Source: a virus (taxonomy: Duplodnaviria > Caudoviricetes). Taken from it: DNA of 35,718 bases. This document shows positions 5,691 through 33,373 of this stretch, piece after piece; positions within the stretch are counted from its first letter, which is position 1; each line of letters begins with the position of its first letter. The DNA lies in IMG/VR virus record IMGVR_UViG_3300048578_000459, positions 1-35,718 of that record. The stretch is one strand, 5' to 3'. The notes below the pieces were generated by a model that saw only the letters and a list, made by a program, of their open reading frames with translations, had not been told where the DNA came from and did not search any database. The position numbers and the translations under genes are program-made.

Positions 5691-5884
5691 GGCGCGACCG
5701 CCCGCTGTTCCTCGAAGAGCGCGTCGGCATCGCGCGCAAGATGATCAACGAAGACACGCTCCGCGTCTTCGGCAAGCTGACGGAGCGCCAGAGCGCATTC
5801 GTTTGGCGCCTCATCGGCGTGCTCGATGGCGACCGGCACGCGGTCCCGAGGAAGCACCGTCGCCTCGTGCGGAGGCCGCGATGA
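5687..5884 (+). CDS. hypothetical protein
   Basis: ATGA overlaps at both ends (MRRDRPLFLEERV...). Confidence 0.65.
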   Translation: MRRDRPLFLEERVGIARKMINEDTLRVFGKLTERQSAFVWRLIGVLDGDRHAVPRKHRRLVRRPR

Positions 5885-6456
5885 ACGCCGACATGTTCCC
5901 CGAGGCGAAGGTCGACCCCACCCTCGACAACGACCGCCGCTACACCACGCGCGACACGATGGACCTGTGCAAGCGCCTCGCTGGCGTCGACGGCTGGGAC
6001 CTCGACGTGGCGGCCGATGAGGAGAGCCATTGGGCGCCGCGGTTCTTCGACGTGAAGCGCGACGGGCTGGAGTGCTCATGGCTGCCCGACACGCCACCGC
6101 CGACCATGCGCGACGGCTCGCTGCCTCGCGGTGGCAATGGCAAGCGCTGGAACATCTGGTGCAACCCGCCCTACAGCGACATCGAGCCGTGGGTGGTGAA
6201 GGCGTGGGAGACCTCGACGCAGATCGACCCGCGCTTCGACTGGACGCTGGCGATGCTCCTCCCGTGCATCCGCACCGAGCAACCGTGGTGGCAAGAGCAC
6301 GTCGAGATCCACCGCGACGGCCGCGACCTGCCCGGCATGCTCGACACCCACTTCCTCCCCGGCCGCGTGAAGTTCGGCCACCCCGGCAACCGTGACGCCG
6401 TGGGCGTGGGCTCGCCTCCGTTCGGGTGCGTGCTGCTGGTGTGGAGGCGCGCTTGA
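5881..6456 (+). CDS. phage DNA N6-adenine methyltransferase (Dam-like family)
   Basis: RYTT...WDLDVAAD...DGL..W...IWCNPPYS..PWV.KA...MLLP..TE..WW..GRVKF..PPFG pattern. Confidence 0.88.
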   Translation: MNADMFPEAKVDPTLDNDRRYTTRDTMDLCKRLAGVDGWDLDVAADEESHWAPRFFDVKRDGLECSWLPDTPPPTMRDGSLPRGGNGKRWNIWCNPPYSDIEPWVVKAWETSTQIDPRFDWTLAMLLPCIRTEQPWWQEHVEIHRDGRDLPGMLDTHFLPGRVKFGHPGNRDAVGVGSPPFGCVLLVWRRA

Positions 6457-7022
6457 AGCGCTTCAAGTACGACGTCCGCGATCTCACCGACGAGACGCTG
6501 GCGAGCGCGAAGGCCGGCTCTCGCACAGCCATCGACGAGGTGTTCCGCGCCACCATGGGGCTGGTCCGTTGGCGCGCGAACACGTACCCGGTCGACAACG
6601 ACACGCGAGACGACCTCATCGGCATCGGCCACCTCGCCGTCTTCGATGCGGTCCGCACCTTCAGGCCCGGCAAGGGGCCCTTCGCGCCGTGGGTGACGCA
6701 GTGGATTCACGCGCGCATGTACACGGCCGTCCGCTCGGAGAGTCGCCGCGACGGCTGCCTGCGCGAGTACGAGGAGCACCTGCGCGAGCCCGAGCACCCG
6801 CCGTTGGCCGACGAGATGCTCGAGACCGAAGACGAGTCGGTGCGCCTGCTCCGCGCAGTCTCCTCGCTCTCGCCAAAGCTGCGCGGGGTGCTGCAGGGCC
6901 GACTGCGCGGGGAGACGCTGGAGCATGTTGGAGCGCAGATGGGAGTCACGAAAGAGGCGACGCGCCTGCGCGAGATGAGAGCCATTGCCCTGCTGGGCCG
7001 ACGACTGCGAGGTGCCGCGTGA
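6453..7022 (+). CDS. phage-encoded sigma-70-family RNA polymerase sigma factor (regions 2 and 4)
   Basis: TTG start overlapping upstream stop (TTGA) with GGAGG RBS; region 2 (DDLIGIGHLAVFDAVRTFRPGKGPFAPWVTQWI) and region 4 HTH (LSPKLRGVLQGRLRGETLEHVGAQMGVTKEATRLREMRAI). Confidence 0.85.
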   Translation: MKRFKYDVRDLTDETLASAKAGSRTAIDEVFRATMGLVRWRANTYPVDNDTRDDLIGIGHLAVFDAVRTFRPGKGPFAPWVTQWIHARMYTAVRSESRRDGCLREYEEHLREPEHPPLADEMLETEDESVRLLRAVSSLSPKLRGVLQGRLRGETLEHVGAQMGVTKEATRLREMRAIALLGRRLRGAA

Positions 7023-12506: not shown

Positions 12507-13490
12507 ATGTCCACTCTCGCTTCAGGCGTTGGCACGCTGCTCGACATCCAGAAGCAGCTCGACCCGAACGGTGCGCCGGCGCGCATCATCGAGTCGCTCA
12601 CCCGCAACTCGCCGATCCTCAACGACATCCCCTGGATGCCGACGAACGGCGCCGACTCGCACCTCGTGACGACGCGGACCGGCCTGCCGAAGCCCACCTG
12701 GGTGAAGTACAACCAGGGCGTCACCCCGGTGAAGGGCACCACGGATCAGTTCACCGAGACGTGCGGCCGCGCTGAGGCGCGCATCTCCATCGACAAGGCG
12801 CTGGCGAAGCGGAAGGGCGCCGAGGCCTACAAGACGCAGCAGGTCTCCGCGGTCATCGAGGGCATGCGCCAGGAGGTCGCGACGGGCCTCTTCTACCACT
12901 CGACCAAGACGGCCCCGGAGAAGTTCATGGGCCTCTCGCCGCGCCTCGATGCGCTGAGCGGCATCCCGTACAGCGGGCAGATCATCCCGCACACCGGCTC
13001 GCCGTCGGGCAATGACCAGATGAGCATCTGGCTCATCGGCTGGGGCCTCAACACCGTGCACGGCATCTACCCGCAGGGCACCACCGCGGGCATCACGCAC
13101 ACGCCGCTGAAGGAGGACTACGAGGACGACGGCGCGGGCGGGAAGTACCTCGCCGAGCGCGCGCACCTCTCGTGGCAGTGCGGCCTCGCCGTCGAAGACG
13201 CGCGCTACGTCGTGCGCATCGCGAACATCGACTACTCGGCGCTCACCGGCACGGGGTCGACCATCATCAACGCGATGATCGACGCGGTCGAGCGCATCCA
13301 CTCGCTCGATGGCTGCACGCCGGTCTTCTACATGAACCGCACGCTGCGCTCGTTCCTGCGCAAGCAGATCAACGACACCGCGAAGACCATCACCATGCAG
13401 GAGGTCGGCGGTCGCCAGGTGATGCACTTCAGCGAGGTGCCCATCCACCGCGAAGACGCGCTGCTCACCACCGAGGCGCCGCTCACCTGA
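12507..13490 (+). CDS. major capsid protein
   Basis: 327 aa; IIESL....IL.DIPW...N....H.VTTRTGLP..TW..YNQGV, FMGLSPR, C-terminal VPIHREDALL.TEA; BPP-1-like MCP pattern. Confidence 0.9.
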   Translation: MSTLASGVGTLLDIQKQLDPNGAPARIIESLTRNSPILNDIPWMPTNGADSHLVTTRTGLPKPTWVKYNQGVTPVKGTTDQFTETCGRAEARISIDKALAKRKGAEAYKTQQVSAVIEGMRQEVATGLFYHSTKTAPEKFMGLSPRLDALSGIPYSGQIIPHTGSPSGNDQMSIWLIGWGLNTVHGIYPQGTTAGITHTPLKEDYEDDGAGGKYLAERAHLSWQCGLAVEDARYVVRIANIDYSALTGTGSTIINAMIDAVERIHSLDGCTPVFYMNRTLRSFLRKQINDTAKTITMQEVGGRQVMHFSEVPIHREDALLTTEAPLT

Positions 13491-14038: not shown

Positions 14039-14080
14039 GCCGTCGCTGCTCGCGCGGGCTCTGTACTGGTGGAGCGAGCA

Positions 14081-14115
14081 GCACCCGGCGGGGATTGTCC
14101 CCGCCGGTGCAGTTT
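14081..14115 (+). terminator. GC-rich hairpin, possible terminator or processing signal upstream of the tRNA
   Basis: CCGGCGGGGA-TTG-TCCCCGCCGG (14085-14107) followed by TGCAGTTT; a second hairpin GCTGCTCGC/GCGAGCAGC spans 14045-14082. Confidence 0.45.
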
Positions 14116-14188
14116 AGCGGAGCAGAGCAGTTGGCAGCTCGTCGGGCCTACAGCCCGAAGGTCGCAGGTTCGATTCCTGCCTCCGCTA
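14116..14188 (+). tRNA. initiator (fMet)-like tRNA body with anticodon TAC (Val); non-canonical C8 and C33; CCA not encoded
   Basis: AGCGGAG/CTCCGCT acceptor stem, GAGC/GCTC D stem, TCGGG-CCTACAG-CCCGA anticodon arm, AGGTC variable loop, GCAGG-TTCGATT-CCTGC T arm, A73. Confidence 0.8.
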
Positions 14189-14216
14189 CTCACGCAGCAA
14201 ACGAAGGAGCGACACC

Positions 14217-14681
14217 ATGGCACCGCAGCCCCAGAAGCAGAACGAAGCGCCCAAGACGGAGATCCTCGCGCCGAAGGTCGAGGCGAAGGCGACCGAGAAG
14301 GCGGCCGAGCCCGTCAACCCGGAGCTCGAGCAACTCCGTGAGGAGAACGCGCGCCTCAAGCTGGAGCGCCGCCAGTTCGAAGCGGCCATGAAGGCGGCCG
14401 AGAAGGCCGTGTCCGAGGACGCGCAGATCGAGAAGATGGAGAAGCCCTTCCGCAACGCGGCCGGGCAGCTCGTCGACGAGAAGTACCGCGGCGTGAAGCA
14501 GTACCGCGTCGGCGCGGCCGGCGCGTACCGCGAGGGTCGCCACTACACCGAGGGGGAGATCATCACCCTCGTCGACGCGGTGCCCTCGCGCACCTGGACC
14601 CCGTACGAGAAGAAGGCGGCCACCGCGGCCGTCGAGGCGCCGCCGGCTGACACCGCGCGCGACGCCGACGCCGCCATCTGA
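14217..14681 (+). CDS. hypothetical protein in head-tail module
   Basis: AAGGAG RBS; GC3-rich; coiled-coil segment. Confidence 0.8.
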   Translation: MAPQPQKQNEAPKTEILAPKVEAKATEKAAEPVNPELEQLREENARLKLERRQFEAAMKAAEKAVSEDAQIEKMEKPFRNAAGQLVDEKYRGVKQYRVGAAGAYREGRHYTEGEIITLVDAVPSRTWTPYEKKAATAAVEAPPADTARDADAAI

Positions 14682-14689
14682 GGTGAGCC

Positions 14690-15295
14690 ATGGCCGCTGT
14701 CACGACGGAAGCCCAGGTCTGCAACATCGCCCTCGGCCTCGTCGGGCAGCGGCAGCTCATCGACCGACTCGACGAAGCCACCACCGAGGCGCAGCTCTGC
14801 GCGGCGTACTTCGCGACGGTGCGCAACGACCTGCTCGAGGCCTGGCACTGGCGCTTCGCCACGAAGCGCGCGGTGCTGGCCCTCACCAACGAGTCGCGCC
14901 TGGGCTGGGCCTTCTGCTACCGCTCGCCGGCCGACTGCCTCAAGGCGCGCCGCATCTGGGACGGTGACACGCAGCCCGGAGAGAAGCGCATCCCCTTCAC
15001 GCGCGAGCTCAACGACGCCGGCGACGGCCACCTCATCCTCACCAACCACCCCGAGGCCGAGCTCGTCTACACGGTCGAGCTGAAGACGGTCGCCCTCTGG
15101 CCCACGGCCTTCGTCAACGCGGTGGCCGCGGCGCTCGCCGTCGCCCTCGCGCCCGCGCTGGCCGCGAAGCCACAGCTGATTCCCACCTTCGAGCGACGTG
15201 CCCTGCTGGCCTTCCAGCGCGCGGCCGCGCTCGACGCCAACGAGACCGAGCCCGACGAGCAGGCTGAGTCGGAGATGATCAGCGAGAGGTACTGA
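14690..15295 (+). CDS. tail adaptor / tail tubular protein A-like
   Basis: VCNIALGLVG..I..LDE...A..C...F...R..LL..W.WRFA, Y..PADCL, WP..F..A motifs. Confidence 0.8.
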   Translation: MAAVTTEAQVCNIALGLVGQRQLIDRLDEATTEAQLCAAYFATVRNDLLEAWHWRFATKRAVLALTNESRLGWAFCYRSPADCLKARRIWDGDTQPGEKRIPFTRELNDAGDGHLILTNHPEAELVYTVELKTVALWPTAFVNAVAAALAVALAPALAAKPQLIPTFERRALLAFQRAAALDANETEPDEQAESEMISERY

Positions 15296-18094: not shown

Positions 18095-19902
18095 TGCGAG
18101 TCCCGGTGCTGAAGCAACAGAGCGTCGCCGCGCGGAACCCCTTCGGCGACACGTCGCCCAACCTCCAGCAGGCCAACCTCGGTACCGCCCAGGCTCTCGG
18201 CGCCGTCGCGCAGGACGTCGGCCAGCTCGGCCAGTCCATCGGCAACGTCATGGAGCAGCAGGCGCGCGAGGAGCGGCAGGCCAGCGCGAAGGCGCTGCAC
18301 GACGCCGAGGTCGCGAAGAGGCGCGCCGAGGAGCTGCAGGTCGCTGATGGACTGGTCGACCTCCAGCGGCGCGTCGGCGACGACGAGTCGAAGTTCCTCG
18401 GACGCAAGGGGCTCGATGCGGTGCGCGCCTCGGGCGGCACGCTCGACGCCTTCGACAAGTACGTCGAGGAGGGCGCGAAGCGGTACACGGACCCGACGCA
18501 GAAGCTTGAGTTCCAGGTGCGAGCGAAGCAGGCGCTCCTCGCTGCGCGTCGCTCGGTCGAGAGCCACACGACTCGCGAGTACGCTGCCGGCACCGCCACC
18601 ACCTTCGCGAACCTCCGCGACGCCGCGGTGCGGAATGCGGGCAGCGTCGACCTCTCGCCGGCTGAGATGGCCAGCGCGCTGGCGCCGGTGGATCAAGCCG
18701 CCGACGAGTTCTTCCCGGCCGAGCTGGCCAAGACCGCGAAGACGGAGCTGCGCGCCGACATGGCCGAGGCCGTCATCCAGCGGCATCTCGAGGCGGGCAA
18801 CATCGAGAAGGCCAAGGCCCAGCTCGAGGCGGATCGCAGCCTCTTCGCCCCCAAGCGCGCCACGCAGCTCGGCGCCGCCATCGACCGCGCCAACGCCGGC
18901 GCCGAGAAGGACCGCGTCGCCGGCGAGGTGGCCAAGCTGGTCGACACCTCGGCCGAGGCGGTGCGCACGCCCGACGGCTACGTCACCGAGGAGGCCCTGC
19001 GGAAGGCGGTGCCCGTCGAGGGCTACGAGGGCCAGCAGCGCGACCAGGTGGAGGCGGAGATTCGTCAGCGGCTGCAGCTCGAGCGCGCGAAGCTGAAGGC
19101 CGACGGTGACAAGCACCGCGACAACGTCAACCGCGCCGACCTGCAGGGCGTGCGGGCCGGCGAGAGCGAGGTGTGGCTGGAGAAGTACGACCCCGACTTC
19201 CTGCTGGCGCGGCAGGCGCGGAAGCGCGCTGAGTTCCGCGCGTGGAAGGCCTCGCAGGGCGATGCGAAGGGCAAGGCGGCAGAGGCGCGGCTGCAGAAGG
19301 CCGTCGATCAGGAGTTCCTCAACCGGCTCAACGCTGAGCTCATCAATGATCCGTCGACGAAACCCGACGACTTCCTCACCACCTTCATCGCCGAGAAGGC
19401 GAAGCAAGGCGACGACGTCATGGTGTCCGACGTCGCGCGTGCGCGCGCCGGCCTCGACGCCGCGAAGGCGGGGAAGCGCGCGGATAGCACCGAGGGGGCC
19501 ACCGAGCGCGCCGTGGCGAACCGCTTTGAGCGCACCCTCGGTGCGGCCTTCAAGCAGAAGGGCAAGCCCCTCGATCAGAAGCTGCTCAACGAGCGCGTCG
19601 GCCGTGCCCTCGGCCTGTATCGCGAGCGCCTCGATGCGAAGGGCAAGCCCCTCGATGAGGCCGAGCTCGCAGGTCTCGAGGCCGAGATGCTGCGCGAGGT
19701 CACCGTGTCGGAGCCCGGTCGCTTCTTGGGGACCAACGACGTGAAGAAGAAGGCGATCGACGCGCTCGTGACGGGGACCGAGCCCTCCAGGCCAATGCCC
19801 GCTGGGGGTGTCCGCCTCGATGCGCGGCCCACGGCCAGCGGCAAGAACGGCGAGCGGTACCGCCTCAGCGATGACGGAAAGTCGTGGGAGATCATCAAGT
19901 GA
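18091..19902 (+). CDS. internal virion (ejection) protein, T7 gp15-like position
   Basis: ~600-aa helical protein; MRVPV...V N-terminus and Gly-rich QALGAVAQDVGQLGQSIG; synteny. Confidence 0.65.
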   Translation: MMRVPVLKQQSVAARNPFGDTSPNLQQANLGTAQALGAVAQDVGQLGQSIGNVMEQQAREERQASAKALHDAEVAKRRAEELQVADGLVDLQRRVGDDESKFLGRKGLDAVRASGGTLDAFDKYVEEGAKRYTDPTQKLEFQVRAKQALLAARRSVESHTTREYAAGTATTFANLRDAAVRNAGSVDLSPAEMASALAPVDQAADEFFPAELAKTAKTELRADMAEAVIQRHLEAGNIEKAKAQLEADRSLFAPKRATQLGAAIDRANAGAEKDRVAGEVAKLVDTSAEAVRTPDGYVTEEALRKAVPVEGYEGQQRDQVEAEIRQRLQLERAKLKADGDKHRDNVNRADLQGVRAGESEVWLEKYDPDFLLARQARKRAEFRAWKASQGDAKGKAAEARLQKAVDQEFLNRLNAELINDPSTKPDDFLTTFIAEKAKQGDDVMVSDVARARAGLDAAKAGKRADSTEGATERAVANRFERTLGAAFKQKGKPLDQKLLNERVGRALGLYRERLDAKGKPLDEAELAGLEAEMLREVTVSEPGRFLGTNDVKKKAIDALVTGTEPSRPMPAGGVRLDARPTASGKNGERYRLSDDGKSWEIIK

Positions 19903-22900
19903 GCCTGCCTCCTCTGCCTGACGGTGCGACCCTCGACGCGCTGCCGCCTCTTCCCGAAGGCGCCACGTTGGATGCGCCGGAGAACACCGATCCCGCCTCC
20001 CGCGACGTGGCTCCATCGGTCACCGGTTTCACCGCCGAGGACGTGTCGGCCGATGTGCAGGCTGCCGATCGCACCGCGCGCCATACCCGCCTGCGCCTGG
20101 CCTTCGATGAGTCGCGGCGTACGAGCGAGGACGACGCCGCGACGACGCTGGCCGTGGCGAAGCAACTGGGCGTCCCTTTCGACAACGTGCGGAAGAACCT
20201 GCCCGCGTTCAAAGAGACGGCGGCCGCTGCCCAGTTCGATCCCGCGAGGTGGGAGCAGGAGAACCCCGAGCTCTCGAAGCTGGTGCTCTCGACCCCCGAG
20301 CTCGGCCCGCTGGTACTCCGATCGAAGGAGATCGGCCCCATTGTGCGCGCCTTCCGCGCCGCTGGCGACTGGACGAAGGACGCACTGCGAGCGGTCAACG
20401 AAGCGCTGACCGTTCCGGCCGACACGCTCGCTGAGCAGCAGGCGCAGATGCAGAGCTCAGACTTCGCGGCCGTCGATCCCTCGAAGCTCGAGCAGGCCAA
20501 CACCCCCCTCACTCCGGAGCAGGTGGCCGACGTCGAGCGGCAGCGCGCTCAGCGTGACGCTCCCAAGCTGGCCCAGGAGCGAGAGGACCCGAAGGCGCGC
20601 CTCGTGCGCGAGGACACCAGCTTCTCCGGCCGCCTTCTGCTCCTCGGGCTGCGAGCCGCCGAGACGAAGCAGTCGCTCGACCTCGCGCGCAAGCAGGTGC
20701 GGTTGATGTTGGCGGAGAACGGCATCGCCGGCGATCCCGCCGAACTCGCCGCCGAGCTCCATGACGCGAAGCTCGCCTCGACGCCTCGCTCGTACGGCGA
20801 CGACACCGGGTTGCTGCGCGATCTCACCGAAGGTCTGCAGGGCGCAGTTTCCACGGTCGACGTCGGCGCCGACGCCCTCAAGGGTGCTGGTGTCGCAGGC
20901 GCGGTTGGTTTCGTCGCGACTGCGGTACCGACCGCGGTGGTGACGAAGAACCCCGGAGCGGCCGTCAGGGCCGGCGTCGCTGGTGCTCGCGCCCTCGCAG
21001 GCAAGGGCGCACAGACCGCTGCTTTCCTTTCGGCGATGGAGCTCGAGACGGGGACCTCCTACGAGGCGCTGCGCGAGCTCACCACCGATGCGGGGCAGAA
21101 GCTCACCCCGGGTGAGGCGATGGGCGGAGCGGTCGTGCAGGGGCTCATCAAGGGCGGCCTCGAGTTCGTCAGCTTCGGCCAGCAGACGAAGGTGCTGAAG
21201 CAGGCGCTGCCGTCACAGATCACCGGTCTCATCACGAAGGACCCGACCTTCCGCGCGCTGCTGCGTCGCGTGGCGACCGAGTACGGGAAGAGCGTCGCGA
21301 CCGAGGGCATCACCGAGGGGCTGCAGGACGCGGTCGAGCAGATCGGTGACTTCGTCCAGGCGAGCATGAAGGACGAGGCCTTGCAGAAGCAGGCCTACGA
21401 CCCGACGCGCGGCCTCGAGGCCACACAGGGCGGCGTGCTGGGTGCGCTGCTCTCCGGCGGCGTCACCTCCGGTTTGGCCCTGGCCACGACGCGCACGACG
21501 GACGCGCGCACCGAGGTGGCTGATCAGCAGGTGGCGCCGCTGCTCGAGCTCGCGCAGCAGCCGACGGTGAAGGCGGCGCCGGAGGCCTTCGCGCAGCTCA
21601 TCGCCGAGACCTCGGCCGAGGGAGGCCACGCACCGCTCACGGCGCTGCACGTCGACGCGCACGCCGTCGTGAAGTACTTCCAGGAGCAGGGCTTCGACGG
21701 GCAGGCAACCAACGCCGCTGTCGCCGAGCTGCTCGGCCCCGACGCACCGGCGAAGCTCCTCGATGCGGCGGCCACCGGCGGCAAGCTCGAGGTGCCCGTC
21801 GAGGCCGTGCTGTCGAAGTGGGGCACCAGCGAGGCAGGGAAGGCCCTCGTCGACGACACCACCACCGATCCGTCGGCCCTCACTCCGCGCCAGCGTGCCG
21901 AGCAGAAGGCGGAGATCGAGGCGCGCGCCGAGGCCATCGCGAAGGAGGAGGAAGCGAAGGCGTCCGAGGCCGAACTGCTCGCCAACCGCACGCGTGAGCT
22001 CGAGCAGCAGCTGATCGATGCAGGGCAGTCGAAACAGGCGGCCAAGGCCAGCGCCGCCCTGGTGCGCGCGTTCTCGGCGACGATGGCGGCCGACTTCAAC
22101 CAGGCGCTCTCCGCCGTCTTCCCCGAGGCCCCTCTCGCTGTCGCCAAGGGCGACGAGCAGGCCGTCGGTGATGCGGCTCTCGCTCAGCTTCCGACCGACG
22201 CGCTGCAGGCTCGCGCAGAGACGATCGATGTTCCGACGCGTGCGGCCGAGCTCTTCACGGACACCGTCTCAGGGCTGCGCACCCGCCGCGCCTGGGACGA
22301 GTCTCCACGGCGGCCGGGCACGCAGGTCGCCGTCATCACGTCGCCCGACATCAAGGCGCTCAACGATCATCCAACCGGCGGCCACGACACCGCGAACGAG
22401 CTCCTGCGCCTCATCGGCGGCGTGCTGGGCGGCGTCGACGCCGAGGCCGCTCGCTCGGGCACGAACTTCCTGCTGCACGCGAAGAATCGCGAGGAACTGC
22501 GCGCGGCCGTCAACGCGGTGCGCGCGGCACTCCCCGCGGGACTGACCGTCGAGGGTGCGGTCGCGCCCGACATCGATGCCGCGTTCGCGAAGCTCGACAG
22601 CACCACCGCCGAGAAGCGGGCGGCTGGGAAGCTGCCGGGCCGCGGGGCAACGGCCTTCGACCTCTCGCAGCTCGGGCCCGAGACCTTCTCCGCGGGGAAG
22701 CCGGCGACGCCGAACGTGAGCCAAGCGCTGCTCGAGCGCGCGGCGCGCACGCAGGGGAAGGACTTCGCGCGCGAGGCCTACTTCGACAAGGACGTGCCGG
22801 GGGTGCTGTCGAAGACGGGCTTCGACGCCCTCGGCGAGCGCGCGTGGGTGTCCGCCTTCGACCTCAAGGGTCTGAAGCGGATCAACGACGTCTTCGGCAA

Positions 22901-25900
22901 GCTCGCGGGCAATGCCATCCTCAAGGCCTTCGGCGAGGCGGCGGCGCGCGCAGGCGGCGGCGACATCGCATTTGCCCACCTGAGCGGAGACGAGTACGCC
23001 GCGAAGCACGACGACCGCGCGAAGCTCGCGGAATTCGAGACCCGCCTCCGGGCTGAGTTGCAGAAGGTCGGCGTCTCGGTGATGTTCGGGGGGGCGCAGT
23101 TCGAGCTCACCCCGGACTTCCGCTCGGGGATCGGAGAGAAGACCTATGGCCGAGCCGACCAAGACCTCAACGCCCGCAAGCGAGCAGAAGCCGCCGCGCC
23201 GAATGACGTTCAGCGAGTTCGCGGACCTGATGGAGCAGCACCCGGAGACCAAGGCGGAGCCGCTCGCGGTGACGGTGGACGGCAAGCCGGCTTGGACGGC
23301 GCCCAAGAAGTAGCCCGCCTCAAGCAGGACACCGGCGCCACCCCGAAGGGCTACACCGAGCTGCCCGCCGGCCGCGCCCTGCAGTCAACCATCAAGGTCT
23401 TCCTCAACAAGAGTGCCGACGTCAGCACGGTGGTGCACGAGGCTGGGCACGCCTTCCTCGAGCAGCTCTTCGACCTCGCCGAGCGCCCCGACGCTCCCCA
23501 ACGCACGAAGGACACCGCGGCCGCGGCGCTCAAAGCGCTCGGTGTCGAGACCCGCGCCGAGGTGAAGCGCGAGCACCACGAAAAGTTCGCTCGCTCCTTC
23601 GAGAAGTACGTCTTCACCGGCGAGGCCCCCAGCTCTGGCCTGAAGCAGGTCTTCGCGCGCTTCACCCGCTGGCTCAGCGCCATCTACCGCACGCTGACCG
23701 GCATCCCCGGCGCCGAGCTCAGCGCCGAGCTGAAGCCCGTCTTCGACGCGATGCTGGCGACCGAAGATCAGATCGCCGCCCTGCGCCGCAAGCAAGGGCC
23801 CCAGCTCACCGCCGAGCAGCTGCAGGTGAAGGCCGAGGAGCGCCAGGCGCAGCTCGAGCAGGAGGCCGACGAGTACCGCGAGGGCAGCCACGCCGCGCAG
23901 CTCGCCGCCGTGAAGGACGCCCTGCGCGCCCGCGAGGCATGGTGGAAGAAGGGGCTGCAGCAGCTCGAGGCGAACTTCGCCGACGAGTACGAGCAGCTGC
24001 CCGCTCGACGTGCGCAGCGGCTGATCAGCGGCGAGGAGACGGGCGAGGCGATGGTGCTCGACCGAAAGCTGGTGCAGGAGGTGATCGGCGAGCTGAAGGT
24101 GCCGGGCCTGAAGACGGCAGAGACCGGCGGGGTCCGCCCGTCGCTGGTGGCGGAGATGGCCGGCTACGCCTCGCCTCGCGCCATGCTGGCCGAGCTCGCG
24201 GGCCTCCGGTCCAAGGAGACGTGGGTGCGCGCCCAGGCCGAGGCGACGATGCGGCAGCTCCACCCGGGCATCCTCGACGACCTCACGAAGTTCCGGGCTC
24301 TCCTCTCCGACGGGCTGCGCAGCGCCACCGAGAAACGCCTCATGCGCGAAGTGCAGGGGCTCGACAGGGAGGCGCTCAAGCGTGCGGCCGAGAAGCTGGT
24401 CGAGCGACGCGTCGTGGGCAAGCTGCAGCCGGGCAGGGCGCTGGCGCAGCAGCGCGCGGCGGCCGCGGCGAAGGCCCGCGCCATGGCGAAGGGCGACATC
24501 AACGCCACCCGCGAAGCGGCGCAGGCTGAGCTGCTCAACCACTACCTGCACCACGAGCTCACCGCGGCCGCGGCGGAAGTGGGCAAGGTCGAGGATCTGG
24601 CGAAGCGGCTCGGCAAGACCTCCGCGCGCGAGCGCCTGGGCAAGGCTTCACCGGCGTACCGCGATGCGGTCGACTTCCTGCGCGGCGCCCTCGGGTTCAG
24701 CGACCCGATCGACCTCGACGCAGGCACCCTCGAAGCGGCCGTCGCGCAGCTCGAGGGAGACGCCGTCACCATCGGCGATCCCGACTGGCTGGCCCCGCTG
24801 CGCGCCGCGCTCAGCAAGACGCAGGACTACCGGCAGCTCACCGTGGCCGAACTCGGCGCCGTGCGCGACGCGCTGAAGATGATCGAGACCGGCGCGCGGA
24901 ACCGCACCGAGATGTTGGTCGACGGAAGGAGGGCTGACTTCGAGGATGTGAAGGCGAAGGCGCTCAAGGAGATCGCCTCGACGCTCCCCGACAAGGGGCG
25001 GATCGTCGCGAAGAACCAGCGGACCGCCACCGAGAAGGTAAAGGCGAAGCTCTCGGCACTCGACGGCTTCTTGCTCACGCCGATCGACTTGGTGCGCGAC
25101 CTCACCGGAGACGACCAGCAGTCGACGCTCTTCAAGGTGGTGGTGAACACCATGCGGCGCAGCGCGGCGCTCGAGGCCGACTTGCTCGAGCAGCGCATCA
25201 AGCCCGTCCTCGACGTCTTCGAGAAGATGAGCCCGGAAGCCCGGAAGAGCCTCGGCGATCTCGTCGATGGGCGCGCGCTCTTTCCAACGTGGAACAGCGA
25301 TCTCGAGGCGCCTCGGCACGTCGACGAACTGCTCTCGCTCGCGCTGAACTTCGGCAGCGAGTCGAGCCGGAAGGTGGTGCTCGAGGGGTTCGGCATCACC
25401 GAAGACCAGGTGAAGGCAGCTCTCGATGCCCATCTGAAGCCCGAGCACATCGAGCTCATCAACGCGGTGTGGAAGACGCTCGATGCCTTGCGCGAGCCGG
25501 CCTTCGACCTCGAGGAGCGCGAGACCGGGCTACGCCCGAAGGCGGTCGAAGCTGTGCCCCTGCAGCTGAAGGCGGGCATGCTCGAAGGCGGGTACTTCCC
25601 GCTCAAGGCCAACCCTGAGGCGTCCACCGTCGGAGCGCGGCAGTTCGGCGAGGAGCAGCTCGCGTCGCTCTTCGACCCGACCTTCACCCGCCCGGGCACC
25701 GCACACGGCCACCTCAAGAGCCGCAAGGACGGCGCGCGCTACGCTGTGTCCCTTGATCTTGACGTCTTCCGAAAGCACCTGCTGCAGGTCGGCCACGATC
25801 TCGCATACCGCGAGGGAGTGAAGTCGGTCGCGCGCCTCGTGATGGACGGCGACATACAGCGCGAGCTCACGCGCAAGCTGGGCGCGGAGAAGACGAAGGA

Positions 25901-27143
25901 GTTCCTGTTCTGGCTGAAGGACATCGGCGGCGCGTCAGGGCTGCAGTCGACCCCCGCCGACTCGCTGCTGTCCTTCTTCAAGAAGAACCTCTCGACCTCG
26001 GCGCTGAGCGGCCTGAGCACCGCGGTCGGCAACTTCGCCAACCTCCCGGCCGCCGTCGCCTCAACACCCCTCAAGGCGAAGCACCTCGCCGCCGGCATCG
26101 CCCAGGTGATGGCCGCGCCGTGGGACATGGTGCATGGCACCTCGACCGCTCGGCAGGCGATGCTTGAGAAGAGCGGGGTGATGCGCTCCGAGAACAGCGA
26201 ACTGGTGCAGCAACTCCAGCGCGACATCGTGGGGCTGCGCGCCGGCGCCGTGCGCCGAGGCCTCGAGAAGATGCGCGAGGTCGGGATGATCGCCATGCGC
26301 GGAGTCGACGCCATCGTGTCGACCGCGGTGTGGACCGGCGCGTACCGCCAGGCGCTCGCCGAGGGACGTTCCGAGGCTGAGGCGGTGCGCTGGGCCGACG
26401 ACATCCACTCGAAGGTTCAGCCGTCGAAGAACGTCGCTGAGAAGAGCCGCATCCTCCGAGACAAGGGAACGTGGGTGGGCGCCGCGACCATCTTCTACAG
26501 CTACCTGAACGTCGCCTACCGAGCGCAGCACCGGCTCGCAGCGCCGCTCTTCACGCAGGCGTTCCGCGGCGCGTCGGTGACGAAGAAGGCCACCGTCGCC
26601 GCGGCTGTCGCCGGCAACCTGCTCGCGTTCTACGTCGCGGTGCAGGTGCTCGGTGACCTTGGCATGGGGCGCGGGCCCGAGGACGGGGACCGCGACGAAG
26701 AGGACCCGGAGAACAAGCTCCTGAAGTGGCGGAACTGGCTTGTGCGGAAGGTAGCGGTTGCTCCGCTCAGCACCATCCCCGTTCTGCCGCTCACGTCGAT
26801 CGTCGAAGGGGGCGTCCTCGGCAAGAAGGTGTCGCCGCGCGCCGAGCCCGTTACCGCCACGCTCTACCAGTTCTCGAAGTTGGTCGAACAACTGCGCCGC
26901 GACGAGGCAACGGAAGAGGACATCGCCAAGGCGGCGTGGCCGCTCGTCGGCGCCTTCACCGGTCTTCCAACGCGCCTGGTAGGCACAACGGGCAAGTACA
27001 TCTGGGAAACGACTGCAGGCGACCGCGAGGTACCCAACGCCGGACGCTTCGTAGGCGGCGTGATCTACGGCGAGAAGGACGGCCAGCCCGACAACCTACC
27101 GGCCGTTCTGGGCGACGGCCTCGACCCGCTCAAGGTCGAGTAG
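19899..27143 (+). CDS. giant internal virion/ejection protein (polyvalent-type) with tandem GGDEF-like domains and a zincin-like HExxH domain
   Basis: GTG start overlapping upstream stop (GTGA); ~2414 aa; hydrophobic Gly/Ala-rich segments; GGDEF-like motifs at 22248-23190; HEAGH at 23436-23450; GGYFPL motif in the C-terminal part. Confidence 0.85.
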   Translation: MSLPPLPDGATLDALPPLPEGATLDAPENTDPASRDVAPSVTGFTAEDVSADVQAADRTARHTRLRLAFDESRRTSEDDAATTLAVAKQLGVPFDNVRKNLPAFKETAAAAQFDPARWEQENPELSKLVLSTPELGPLVLRSKEIGPIVRAFRAAGDWTKDALRAVNEALTVPADTLAEQQAQMQSSDFAAVDPSKLEQANTPLTPEQVADVERQRAQRDAPKLAQEREDPKARLVREDTSFSGRLLLLGLRAAETKQSLDLARKQVRLMLAENGIAGDPAELAAELHDAKLASTPRSYGDDTGLLRDLTEGLQGAVSTVDVGADALKGAGVAGAVGFVATAVPTAVVTKNPGAAVRAGVAGARALAGKGAQTAAFLSAMELETGTSYEALRELTTDAGQKLTPGEAMGGAVVQGLIKGGLEFVSFGQQTKVLKQALPSQITGLITKDPTFRALLRRVATEYGKSVATEGITEGLQDAVEQIGDFVQASMKDEALQKQAYDPTRGLEATQGGVLGALLSGGVTSGLALATTRTTDARTEVADQQVAPLLELAQQPTVKAAPEAFAQLIAETSAEGGHAPLTALHVDAHAVVKYFQEQGFDGQATNAAVAELLGPDAPAKLLDAAATGGKLEVPVEAVLSKWGTSEAGKALVDDTTTDPSALTPRQRAEQKAEIEARAEAIAKEEEAKASEAELLANRTRELEQQLIDAGQSKQAAKASAALVRAFSATMAADFNQALSAVFPEAPLAVAKGDEQAVGDAALAQLPTDALQARAETIDVPTRAAELFTDTVSGLRTRRAWDESPRRPGTQVAVITSPDIKALNDHPTGGHDTANELLRLIGGVLGGVDAEAARSGTNFLLHAKNREELRAAVNAVRAALPAGLTVEGAVAPDIDAAFAKLDSTTAEKRAAGKLPGRGATAFDLSQLGPETFSAGKPATPNVSQALLERAARTQGKDFAREAYFDKDVPGVLSKTGFDALGERAWVSAFDLKGLKRINDVFGKLAGNAILKAFGEAAARAGGGDIAFAHLSGDEYAAKHDDRAKLAEFETRLRAELQKVGVSVMFGGAQFELTPDFRSGIGEKTYGRADQDLNARKRAEAAAPNDVQRVRGPDGAAPGDQGGAARGDGGRQAGLDGAQEVARLKQDTGATPKGYTELPAGRALQSTIKVFLNKSADVSTVVHEAGHAFLEQLFDLAERPDAPQRTKDTAAAALKALGVETRAEVKREHHEKFARSFEKYVFTGEAPSSGLKQVFARFTRWLSAIYRTLTGIPGAELSAELKPVFDAMLATEDQIAALRRKQGPQLTAEQLQVKAEERQAQLEQEADEYREGSHAAQLAAVKDALRAREAWWKKGLQQLEANFADEYEQLPARRAQRLISGEETGEAMVLDRKLVQEVIGELKVPGLKTAETGGVRPSLVAEMAGYASPRAMLAELAGLRSKETWVRAQAEATMRQLHPGILDDLTKFRALLSDGLRSATEKRLMREVQGLDREALKRAAEKLVERRVVGKLQPGRALAQQRAAAAAKARAMAKGDINATREAAQAELLNHYLHHELTAAAAEVGKVEDLAKRLGKTSARERLGKASPAYRDAVDFLRGALGFSDPIDLDAGTLEAAVAQLEGDAVTIGDPDWLAPLRAALSKTQDYRQLTVAELGAVRDALKMIETGARNRTEMLVDGRRADFEDVKAKALKEIASTLPDKGRIVAKNQRTATEKVKAKLSALDGFLLTPIDLVRDLTGDDQQSTLFKVVVNTMRRSAALEADLLEQRIKPVLDVFEKMSPEARKSLGDLVDGRALFPTWNSDLEAPRHVDELLSLALNFGSESSRKVVLEGFGITEDQVKAALDAHLKPEHIELINAVWKTLDALREPAFDLEERETGLRPKAVEAVPLQLKAGMLEGGYFPLKANPEASTVGARQFGEEQLASLFDPTFTRPGTAHGHLKSRKDGARYAVSLDLDVFRKHLLQVGHDLAYREGVKSVARLVMDGDIQRELTRKLGAEKTKEFLFWLKDIGGASGLQSTPADSLLSFFKKNLSTSALSGLSTAVGNFANLPAAVASTPLKAKHLAAGIAQVMAAPWDMVHGTSTARQAMLEKSGVMRSENSELVQQLQRDIVGLRAGAVRRGLEKMREVGMIAMRGVDAIVSTAVWTGAYRQALAEGRSEAEAVRWADDIHSKVQPSKNVAEKSRILRDKGTWVGAATIFYSYLNVAYRAQHRLAAPLFTQAFRGASVTKKATVAAAVAGNLLAFYVAVQVLGDLGMGRGPEDGDRDEEDPENKLLKWRNWLVRKVAVAPLSTIPVLPLTSIVEGGVLGKKVSPRAEPVTATLYQFSKLVEQLRRDEATEEDIAKAAWPLVGAFTGLPTRLVGTTGKYIWETTAGDREVPNAGRFVGGVIYGEKDGQPDNLPAVLGDGLDPLKVE
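23146..23313 (+). CDS. nested +1-frame small protein (55 aa) inside the giant virion gene
   Basis: GGAGA at 23133-23137, 8 nt before ATG; MAEPTKTSTPASEQKPPRRMTFSEFADLMEQHPETKAEPLAVTVDGKPAWTAPKK*; 51/55 codons end in G/C while the host frame becomes A/T-ending. Confidence 0.7.
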   Translation: MAEPTKTSTPASEQKPPRRMTFSEFADLMEQHPETKAEPLAVTVDGKPAWTAPKK

Positions 27144-27828
27144 GAGCTCCGAAGAAGCCCAACTCGGCCCGCTTCTTTCCGAGCGTGGCCGACACCGCGC
27201 CAGTGTCCTGATCTGCGGAGGCGTGCACACCGCCACGCCCAGCGCCAAGAATCAGGGTCGAGTTCCTGGTTTCTCCACTCTCAACACCGAGAATGGCTTC
27301 CGACATGTGGCCATCGCGCTTTGAGGTGAGTGAGACCATCGCGGTCTTCTCGGCGGCGAAGATGGTGACGCCTTCTTTCGGATCTTCGTCTGACTTCAAT
27401 GATACCGATGAGGAGAACCCGTTCGTTGCGATCTTCACCCGCGGTTCCTTGTCCTCGTTGAAGAAGACCAAGCTCGTCGCTCCTTTGGTGTCGGTCCGTA
27501 GCAACGAGCGAATCCTTCCGGAGGCGTCAGTTGTCGCAAACGCGGGCTCTCCGTCCAGGACGACCAGCCCTGCGTTCGATCCGCCATTCGGGTCCCGAAC
27601 GATGACCTTGGGCGTGTCCTTGTCGTCCATCGTCAGGAGCAACCCCATCCTTCCGCTCTTGTCCGCAAACCCCACCGCGGCAGTACCATCGTCCATCACC
27701 TGCATCACGATTCGCTGCCGGCCCTTCGCATCAACCAACTCGAGCCGCTGCACGCGGATGGTGTCGTTTGTGAGAGGGGCAGACCCACCGAAGAGAACCA
27801 ACGCCACCACCGGCCAGATCGATTTCAT
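27130..27828 (-). CDS. exported beta-rich protein, moron-like (antisense to late genes)
   Basis: GAGGGT RBS; MKSIWPVVALVLFGGSAP signal-like N-terminus; repeated L.F.D..G..R..L units; visibly lower GC; 14-nt tail-to-tail overlap with the giant gene. Confidence 0.75.
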   Translation of the reverse strand: MKSIWPVVALVLFGGSAPLTNDTIRVQRLELVDAKGRQRIVMQVMDDGTAAVGFADKSGRMGLLLTMDDKDTPKVIVRDPNGGSNAGLVVLDGEPAFATTDASGRIRSLLRTDTKGATSLVFFNEDKEPRVKIATNGFSSSVSLKSDEDPKEGVTIFAAEKTAMVSLTSKRDGHMSEAILGVESGETRNSTLILGAGRGGVHASADQDTGAVSATLGKKRAELGFFGAPTRP

Positions 27829-27901
27829 GCACTGACCCTCGCGCGGCCGAGCTCGGCCCGCAACGCAACGTGCGTTCAGGAAGGCGTGCGGACGTCGGCA
27901 C

Positions 27902-32528: not shown

Positions 32529-33122
32529 ATGCGCATCCGCTTTTCGCTGGTCCTCCTCGCCGCCCTGTCGCTCCCCGCCGTCGCCCACGCCGCCCCCGTG
32601 TCGGAGAGGGCCTCGCTCGAGCGCCCGCTCCCCACGTCCACCGAGGTCGGCATCCCCGACGTCGTGCTGCTCGCGGGTGAGGCCATCCCCCCGGCGCCCA
32701 CCGCGGGCCAGTCCTTCCTCGCCAGCCTGGGCCCGTCGCTGCTCGACCTGCTCAGCGCGGCGGCCATCGCCGGCATCGGCCTCCTCGCCGCCTTCCTGCG
32801 CGCGAAGTCCGCCGAGTCGAAGGTGGCGAAGGTGTCGCTCGTCGTCACCGAGGCAGCCCGCGCGGCGGTGCTGGAGCTCGACGCGAGCATCAAGCCCAAG
32901 CTGAAGGCGTACCTCGCCGACGGCGTGCTGAGCGACGAGGAGAAGGCCGAGCTGAAGAAGATGGCGCTCGACCTGCTCAAGACGAAGCTGCCGGGCGGGC
33001 TGCTCTCCACCGCGGGCAGCGTCTTCGGCGCCTTCACCGACACCTACCTCGCCGGGAAGATCGAACAGGCCGTCGCCGAGAAGAACTCGGTGCAGGCGGC
33101 GGCGGTCCCTCCCTCGCCCTGA
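32529..33122 (+). CDS. holin-like membrane protein with N-terminal signal peptide
   Basis: AAGGAA RBS; signal MRIRFSLVLLAALSLPAVAHA; TM LLSAAAIAGIGLLAAFL; C-terminal YLAGKIEQAVAE reminiscent of LL-H-type holins. Confidence 0.55.
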   Translation: MRIRFSLVLLAALSLPAVAHAAPVSERASLERPLPTSTEVGIPDVVLLAGEAIPPAPTAGQSFLASLGPSLLDLLSAAAIAGIGLLAAFLRAKSAESKVAKVSLVVTEAARAAVLELDASIKPKLKAYLADGVLSDEEKAELKKMALDLLKTKLPGGLLSTAGSVFGAFTDTYLAGKIEQAVAEKNSVQAAAVPPSP

Positions 33123-33373
33123 GCGACGCTCCCGTTCGGGAGGCAGTTGCGGCAGGGCTCGAGCGTGTAGCGGACCTGGCCCCCGGCGCCGGCTACGTCG
33201 AGACGACGGCTGGGCTACGGGGGCTGGGCAAGGACTTCGCGGGCTACGTGCGCGGCGAGCTGGGCGCGCGGCTGAGCCTCAACGCCAACGTCTTTGCCTT
33301 CGGAGAGGCCACCTTCGCGCCGGCTGCGGCTCCGGGGTGGCAGGCTGGTGTTGGCGCGCGTCTGACGTGGTAG
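33119..33373 (+). CDS. unannotated 84-codon ORF ending in an outer-membrane beta-signal-like C-terminus; no canonical start
   Basis: LSDAPVREAVAAGLERVADLAPGAGYVETTAGLRGLGKDFAGYVRGELGARLSLNANVFAFGEATFAPAAAPGWQAGVGARLTW*; -1 frame relative to the upstream gene, CTGA overlap. Confidence 0.6.
   Translation: MSDAPVREAVAAGLERVADLAPGAGYVETTAGLRGLGKDFAGYVRGELGARLSLNANVFAFGEATFAPAAAPGWQAGVGARLTW

Follow-up and report, generated by a model that had tools for sequence, protein, structure and literature searches.

To our knowledge, bacterial translation starts with formyl-methionine brought by a CAU initiator tRNA, whatever the start codon. What, then, is a tRNA with the body of an initiator and an anticodon for valine doing among the head genes of a phage? 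The DNA analysed here (the window; 35,718 nucleotides) is a provirus record of 35.7 kb, about 82% complete and 70% GC, with head and tail genes like those of BPP-1 and phage AF; near-identical DNA was found in 20 of the 21 runs listed, all from wastewater and belonging to nine studies. An initial annotation had proposed that the tRNA is (a) a Val-charged initiator favouring GUG or GUA starts, (b) a decoy against tRNA-fMet anticodon nucleases or (c) a decayed tRNA kept as a processing site, and these readings are weighed here across the window, its relatives and unrelated carriers of the same kind of gene.

Identity and setting of the tRNA gene

The gene (14116..14188, + strand; 73 nt) is a genuine tRNA gene with an initiator body and a UAC anticodon. 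ARAGORN calls tRNA-Val(tac) at 14116-14189, the sole tRNA in the window, Rfam RF00005 matches 14116-14188 at 58.7 bits (E 2.2e-10; cut-off 29 bits), and the cloverleaf is the MFE fold, with a z of -3.1 and none of 200 shuffles equally good, all of which confirms the full cloverleaf like tRNA-fMet that the initial annotation described. Besides 1:72, all 20 stem pairs are intact. The initiator hallmarks it listed can each be read from the sequence: three G:C pairs in the anticodon stem (G29-G31:C39-C41), A11:U24 in the D stem (the R11:Y24 initiator feature), the minor determinants G2:C71, C3:G70 and A73, and at 1:72 a weak A:U pair, likewise present in one CAT-bearing relative (L044). A further minor determinant, G4:C69, is present too. 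Its description of the loop was equally accurate: reading and alignment give CC-TAC-AG, with TAC at 14149..14151 (+ strand) in place of the CAU of tRNA-fMet, C8 (14123) and C33 (14148) stand where canonical tRNA has U8 and U33, and CTC takes the place of an encoded CCA. Among ten aligned tRNAs the window copy alone combines C8 with C33, and its C32:G38 could pair, leaving a 5-nt loop. Annotations of the best 30 of 68 matches in phage records read tRNA-Met in 15 and tRNA-Val in none.

Because the anticodon is UAC, MetRS identity would be lost. The valine determinants A35, C36 and A73 and the minor determinant G45 are all present. The elongator tRNA-Val features G3:C70, U4:A69, G20 and an elongator D stem are absent, the window having C3:G70, G4:C69, C20 and A11:U24 instead, and the lack of the ValRS determinants G3:C70/U4:A69 speaks against valine charging.

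Assembly error as the source of the TAC loop was ruled out, as contigs from three of four runs, from separate studies, span the locus; those of run X6 have gaps around the tRNA. T34, C36, C8 and C33 are retained in the spanning contig of X1, the only run so read, a deduction from change tables in which all C>T, T>C, G>A, C>G, C>A and T>G differences fall outside the tRNA.

Placement within the head operon, as first annotated, was borne out. Upstream on the + strand lie the BPP-1/phage AF-like major capsid protein GP7 (PF20911; 12507..13490) and, directly before the tRNA cassette, Bbp16 (PF21190; 13574..14038); directly downstream is a syntenic 154-aa gene with an ATG start and no assigned function (14217..14681, + strand). 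A first GC-rich leader hairpin (14045..14082, + strand) follows the Bbp16 stop, a second (14085..14107, + strand) precedes TGCAGTT just before the tRNA, and a conserved, YTCACGCAGCA-like trailer with the SD of the next gene (14189..14216, + strand) closes the cassette. Neither a sigma-70 promoter nor a + strand terminator was found near the tRNA. Just before the late genes, window 5881-7022 encodes a Dam-like methyltransferase and a sigma-70-like factor with a TTG start, which may drive the operon that carries the tRNA. Elsewhere in the window, 19899-27143 encodes an ejection-like protein of 2414 aa whose LPD22 and GGDEF-like matches are weak, below the Pfam cut-off, and on the minus strand a gene whose start resembles a signal peptide (27130-27830) apparently lies within the late region. 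Genes read through under table 11, with no stop-codon reassignment (TAG/TGA plus suppressor tRNA) found in the window.

Descent from a phage CAT initiator

Of the 23 capsid-relative loci scanned with ARAGORN, three (L041, L042 and L044) have a tRNA, in each case a CCA-less CAT initiator in the same place and with the same leader and trailer as in the window. Since syntenic relatives carry the CAT initiator, we infer that the window tRNA descends from a phage tRNA-fMet whose anticodon was switched. The initial annotation had expected CAT in relatives to signify a simple pseudogene or assembly artefact; CAT did turn up, in these three, but that meaning does not follow, because TAC recurs in unrelated lineages with cognate starts, which argues for a switch. 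At L041:9591-9662 the CAT tRNA has 30:40 and 31:39 flipped to C:G, losing the three-G:C motif and keeping the pairing.

The main alternative, which we consider unlikely though still serious, is that the cloverleaf serves mainly as an RNase P/RNase Z processing or stability element splitting the head/tail late mRNA, its TAC being chance drift unrelated to the proposed GUA system of the Acidobacteriota prophage G001 described below. In its favour, the window differs from the CAT relatives by transitions only, at the unpaired positions 8, 9, 33, 34, 36 and 38, while the stems, G18G19 and the T loop are unchanged in kind and A6:U67 is a compensatory pair; by our own arithmetic, four transitions in a 7-nt loop yield TAC in 6 of 35 placements. 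At the tRNA's place L043 keeps, by eye, only shortened acceptor- and T-arm-like remains, but this mini-fold differs from the MFE structure (z -0.3). A hairpin at the place of the first leader hairpin is visible by eye in syntenic relatives, and the second is retained with compensatory changes in L041, L042 and L044. The tRNA is absent at the locus in L046, L048, L001 and L003, and the survival of the second hairpin in two of these (L046 and L048, by eye) again favours a processing role. Against that role, CAT is kept in all three full-length syntenic relatives despite stem drift, the anticodon stem is at its most canonical in the window among the syntenic group, T34 and C36 persist in run X1, and the same TAC-AG loop end is found in two unrelated carriers (L004 and L008/L010).

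The four departures of the loop from the CAT relatives would also suit a decoy, a nuclease-proof imitation of tRNA-fMet that ties up an anticodon nuclease or acetyltransferase (VapC or AtaT types) with no part in decoding, and phage tRNAs do bear loop changes at nuclease sites (PMC10264068). The same text reports evasion of the synonymous type and phages that generally avoid encoding fMet when its anticodon is targeted; a decoy would leave the cognate GTA starts of other carriers unexplained and found no direct support in this analysis, and we regard it as improbable.

Recurrence of initiator bodies with valine anticodons

Exact-pattern scans for initiator bodies with non-CAT anticodons outside the C-(not A)-T type showed that four unrelated elements, the window and three others, carry such a body with UAC. 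These are a prophage in a Polarisedimenticolia (Acidobacteriota) MAG (L004 = L007, record G001; relative L009), an element in a Verrucomicrobiia MAG (L006, in G002) and two related small-gene contigs (L008 and L010), L011 being one broken copy. The UAC tRNAs always lie inside or at the head of morphogenesis genes, a placement that the window tRNA shares. Ten aligned tRNAs are paired in 198 of 200 cells over 20 pairs, compensatory changes included (A6:U67 in the window among them), A11:U24 is present in all ten, and 1:72 is unpaired in eight and A:U in two.

In viral contigs, 19 loci had other non-CAT loops, of which five were not tRNAs; the 14 tRNAs comprised TAC (1), GAC (1; L013), CAC (2, from one lineage; L029/L030), TAT (9) and CTA (1). 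Valine anticodons thus recur, though TAC and GAC lie two changes from CAT. Eight of the TAT tRNAs are near-identical, and this family (L014) was set aside from the class for its paired 1:72 and U73; its members in L014, L016-L019, L022, L024 and L025 (about 1479-1555) are phage tRNAs whose D and anticodon stems are of the initiator type. Other forms include an initiator body whose anticodon is CTA (amber) at L028:1479-1553, in a viral contig of 31% GC, and two tandem initiator-like anticodon arms without the remainder of a tRNA at L020:301-391. The UAC class is rare: no further NAC initiators were found in 401 + 401 genomes sampled from two host phyla. As the two MAGs yielded no host CAT initiator, it is an assumption that the UAC tRNA is an additional one there.

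Predicted GTA starts in other carriers

In G001 the tRNA adjoins the terminase genes, just before them, and in 12 late genes the first codon after an SD core that resembles a start is GTA. These predicted starts belong to the portal (16090), protease (20052), capsid-like (21381), adaptor (23510) and tape measure (26881) genes and to further late genes at 24176, 25283, 28796, 31094, 31569, 37029 and 37320, with a lysis-like gene among the 12; the early genes, and roughly nine more late ones, start with ATG or GTG. When the gene junctions of 16 sequences were screened in the same way for GTA without a canonical alternative, 12 of 37 qualified in G001 as compared with 1 of 34 in the window (Fisher p 0.001), and the rest had 0-2 GTA-only junctions; counts of 1-2 in L041, L044, L048 and G006 were rejected for want of coding-like support. 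Given GTA usage of 18 in 7080 codons (0.25%), the binomial probability of the G001 starts is 7e-8. Homologues of the protease agree with its predicted start, as Met1 lies within -3..+4 codons of the GTA in 99 of 120, 34 of them exactly on it; the others start further upstream (14), at codon 19 (5, namely the G001 protease itself and close kin) or elsewhere (2). Two genomes of the same class, among 119 searched, start the protease homologue with GTG and ATG, and neither contains a tRNA-like NAC match.

An out-of-frame NTG-TAR start-stop lies two bases upstream of 11 of the 12 GTA starts, as against 8 of 138 other GTA codons (p 6e-11). That ATG occupies this position in 8 of the 12 sites, together with the tRNA-Val label given by ARAGORN, might suggest an ordinary elongator tRNA-Val supplement, with the ATG-TAR-GTA sites read from ATG by frameshift, but this is very improbable in view of the A11:U24 in 10/10, the weak or unpaired 1:72 and C3:G70, a GTA share of only 0.25% of G001 codons, an SD core 6-7 nt from the GTA and 4-5 from the NTG in 8 of the 12 sites, and the lack of an NTG both at G001 37029 and at the L008/L010 sites. 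The DNA of G001:16090-37724 recurs as L031 and L032 and is the same as G003:C37, and further short SD-GTA frames occur in G001 at 12692 (also L009:1420), 19541 and 25558.

In the L008 and L010 contigs, which on our reading are inovirus-like and for which no PHROG match was found, the first gene behind the tRNA and a coat-like gene each have an SD and a GTA with no NTG. One homologue of the L008 coat-like gene (P0249) has Met1 on the GTA; among the five homologues, one more is called with an extension and three from downstream. L008:439-1371 and L010:183-1051 run from an extended -10-like promoter through a hairpin and the UAC tRNA, whose T-stem differs by compensatory changes, to the GTA-start genes. 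Homologue N-termini thus back two proteins, the G001 protease and the L008 coat-like protein, and for the remaining GTA starts the grounds are SD, position and codon bias. In the G002 element a single GTA candidate (21509) lies directly after a stop, in a TTG-TAG context; this region (G002:C152:19400-27500) looks tail-less, with the UAC tRNA inside an operon and small membrane genes around a 369-aa gene that we would guess encodes a double-jelly-roll capsid. Cognate starts were not seen in GAC, CAC, TAT or CTA carriers by the SD-based test, which is weak in SD-poor genomes: those with GAC (G004) and CAC (G005) showed no enrichment and mostly ordinary ATG starts, and the TAT carrier G006 no ATA-start signal.

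Start codons in the window

The 37 canonical starts in the window's ORF list include seven GTG and one TTG. The GTG starts that the initial annotation named (7456, 7982, 19899, 30862 and 31635) are present, but they fail as a sign of valine initiation, terS and terL having GTG in CAT carriers and tRNA-less relatives as well. A GUG preference was rejected: GTG is not enriched over relatives, ATG-for-GTG swaps are as frequent as the reverse, and some ATG starts of the window correspond to GTG in several relatives.

All GTA codons of the 35.7-kb window with an SD and an open frame were checked, and no convincing SD-backed GTA start was found, a lack of client starts that favours the processing element. 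The single GTA-only junction has no gene assigned to it, and a GTA at 15289 is accounted for by the TGATG-coupled ATG at 15295. The only candidate client was the conserved last late gene (33119..33373, + strand), which has no ATG, GTG or TTG before 33248 and could start at GTT 33134 or GTA 33167. One homologue (93%) has its annotated start at the GTA position, three of five others have theirs at the GTT position, and two DNA relatives have GTG at the candidate start position. This gene was rejected as a client, as an overlap of CTG with TGA common to all three DNAs explains its start without the tRNA. In these three phages the CTG overlaps the upstream TGA, so the gene may be reached by re-initiation at CTG or by a -1 frameshift out of the 32529 gene. 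G011 has only this last late gene in common with the window.

Proposed role and its strength

On balance, and with modest confidence, we read the window gene as a phage initiator tRNA whose anticodon went from CAU to UAC, within a recurring class that likely provides a private start tRNA for GUA. For the class the case is considerably stronger, and a phage Val-initiator tRNA that reads GUA as a natural form of orthogonal initiation is quite probable. The original proposal of a Val-charged initiator is thus strongly supported for the class on the 12 SD-backed GTA starts of G001, as a reader of GUA and not of GUG. Whether the window copy is active is rather doubtful; most likely it is an early-stage or weakened member, able at best to read the seven GUG starts through wobble. 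In its case the processing site of the initial annotation stays a serious rival, on account of C8, C33 and the remnant in L043.

Under the private-start reading, the tRNA would be cut from the late transcript, accepted by host ValRS and formyltransferase (as A35, C36, A73, G45 and the weak 1:72 suggest) and, valylated and formylated, would open late genes at GUA. Late genes would then depend on a tRNA from the same late transcript, which would silence them tightly in the lysogen, and late expression would be independent of host Met-tRNA-fMet; in G001 the overlapping AUG-UAA/UAG start-stop would absorb the host initiator. As the initial annotation held, ValRS reads A35, C36 and A73, and formylation is set by the acceptor stem, not the amino acid (both from PMC9976931). 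Its statement that anticodon-swapped initiators can start with other amino acids likewise agrees with 10.1101/2021.05.25.445580, in which E. coli proteins started by the engineered i-tRNA(AAC) bear Val and formyl-Val at their N-termini, initiation being about 100-fold below that at AUG (about 1%). Unmodified U34 can read all four valine codons in an A-site test (PMC11571807). More tentatively still than for the window gene itself, we suggest that diverse phages repeatedly evolved a private GUA start through a formyl-Val UAC initiator and an AUG-stop trap, of which G001 would be the finished form and the window a first step, its anticodon having switched before its starts were recoded.

If this is true, phages would possess, as an exception to the fMet start, a natural second initiator that delivers valine at a codon of its own. 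It would be a novel means of controlling phage late genes and an evolved model for orthogonal initiation, something that engineering has so far achieved at low efficiency only. Gene callers would shorten such proteins, the G001 protease being on record from codon 19, and tRNA finders label such a gene plain tRNA-Val.

Comparison with known systems

The window tRNA is like bacterial and phage tRNA-fMet in its A11:U24, three G:C pairs, C3:G70, A73 and weak 1:72, and unlike it in its UAC anticodon, C8, C33, CCA-less end and an A1:U72 pair, albeit weak, rather than a mismatch. As far as its sequence tells, it fits neither tRNA-fMet, by the anticodon, nor elongator tRNA-Val, by the acceptor and D stems. 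No natural GUA-initiating tRNA was found in the literature, subscription papers lying mostly, and supplements with possible tRNA lists wholly, outside the scope of that search. The proposed start-codon recoding system is apparently undescribed, with its best evidence in G001 and L008/L010, not in the window.

The nearest counterparts are made in the laboratory. An engineered valine initiator, i-tRNA(GAC), has reportedly been built. The i-tRNA(AAC) of 10.1101/2021.05.25.445580 has the same combination of an initiator body with A35/C36 and is Val-charged at a non-AUG valine codon, and engineered valine initiator tRNAs are also the subject of 10.64898/2025.12.21.695813. Unlike these, the class reported here is natural, is predicted to read GUA and co-occurs with recoded start sites. 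Nuclease-evading phage tRNAs share a changed anticodon loop (PMC10264068), whereas the UAC change alters both the amino acid and the codon read. The proposed system also mirrors phage stop-codon recoding (10.1101/2021.08.26.457843), where late, structural and lysis genes, including those of prophages, are opened by a tRNA that the phage encodes, and a timing or lysogeny switch has likewise been proposed. The UAC class would differ from it in that its tRNA would work in the P site, at start codons and in GC-rich genomes, with no stop reassignment, and in the overlapping start-stop that marks the sites in G001.
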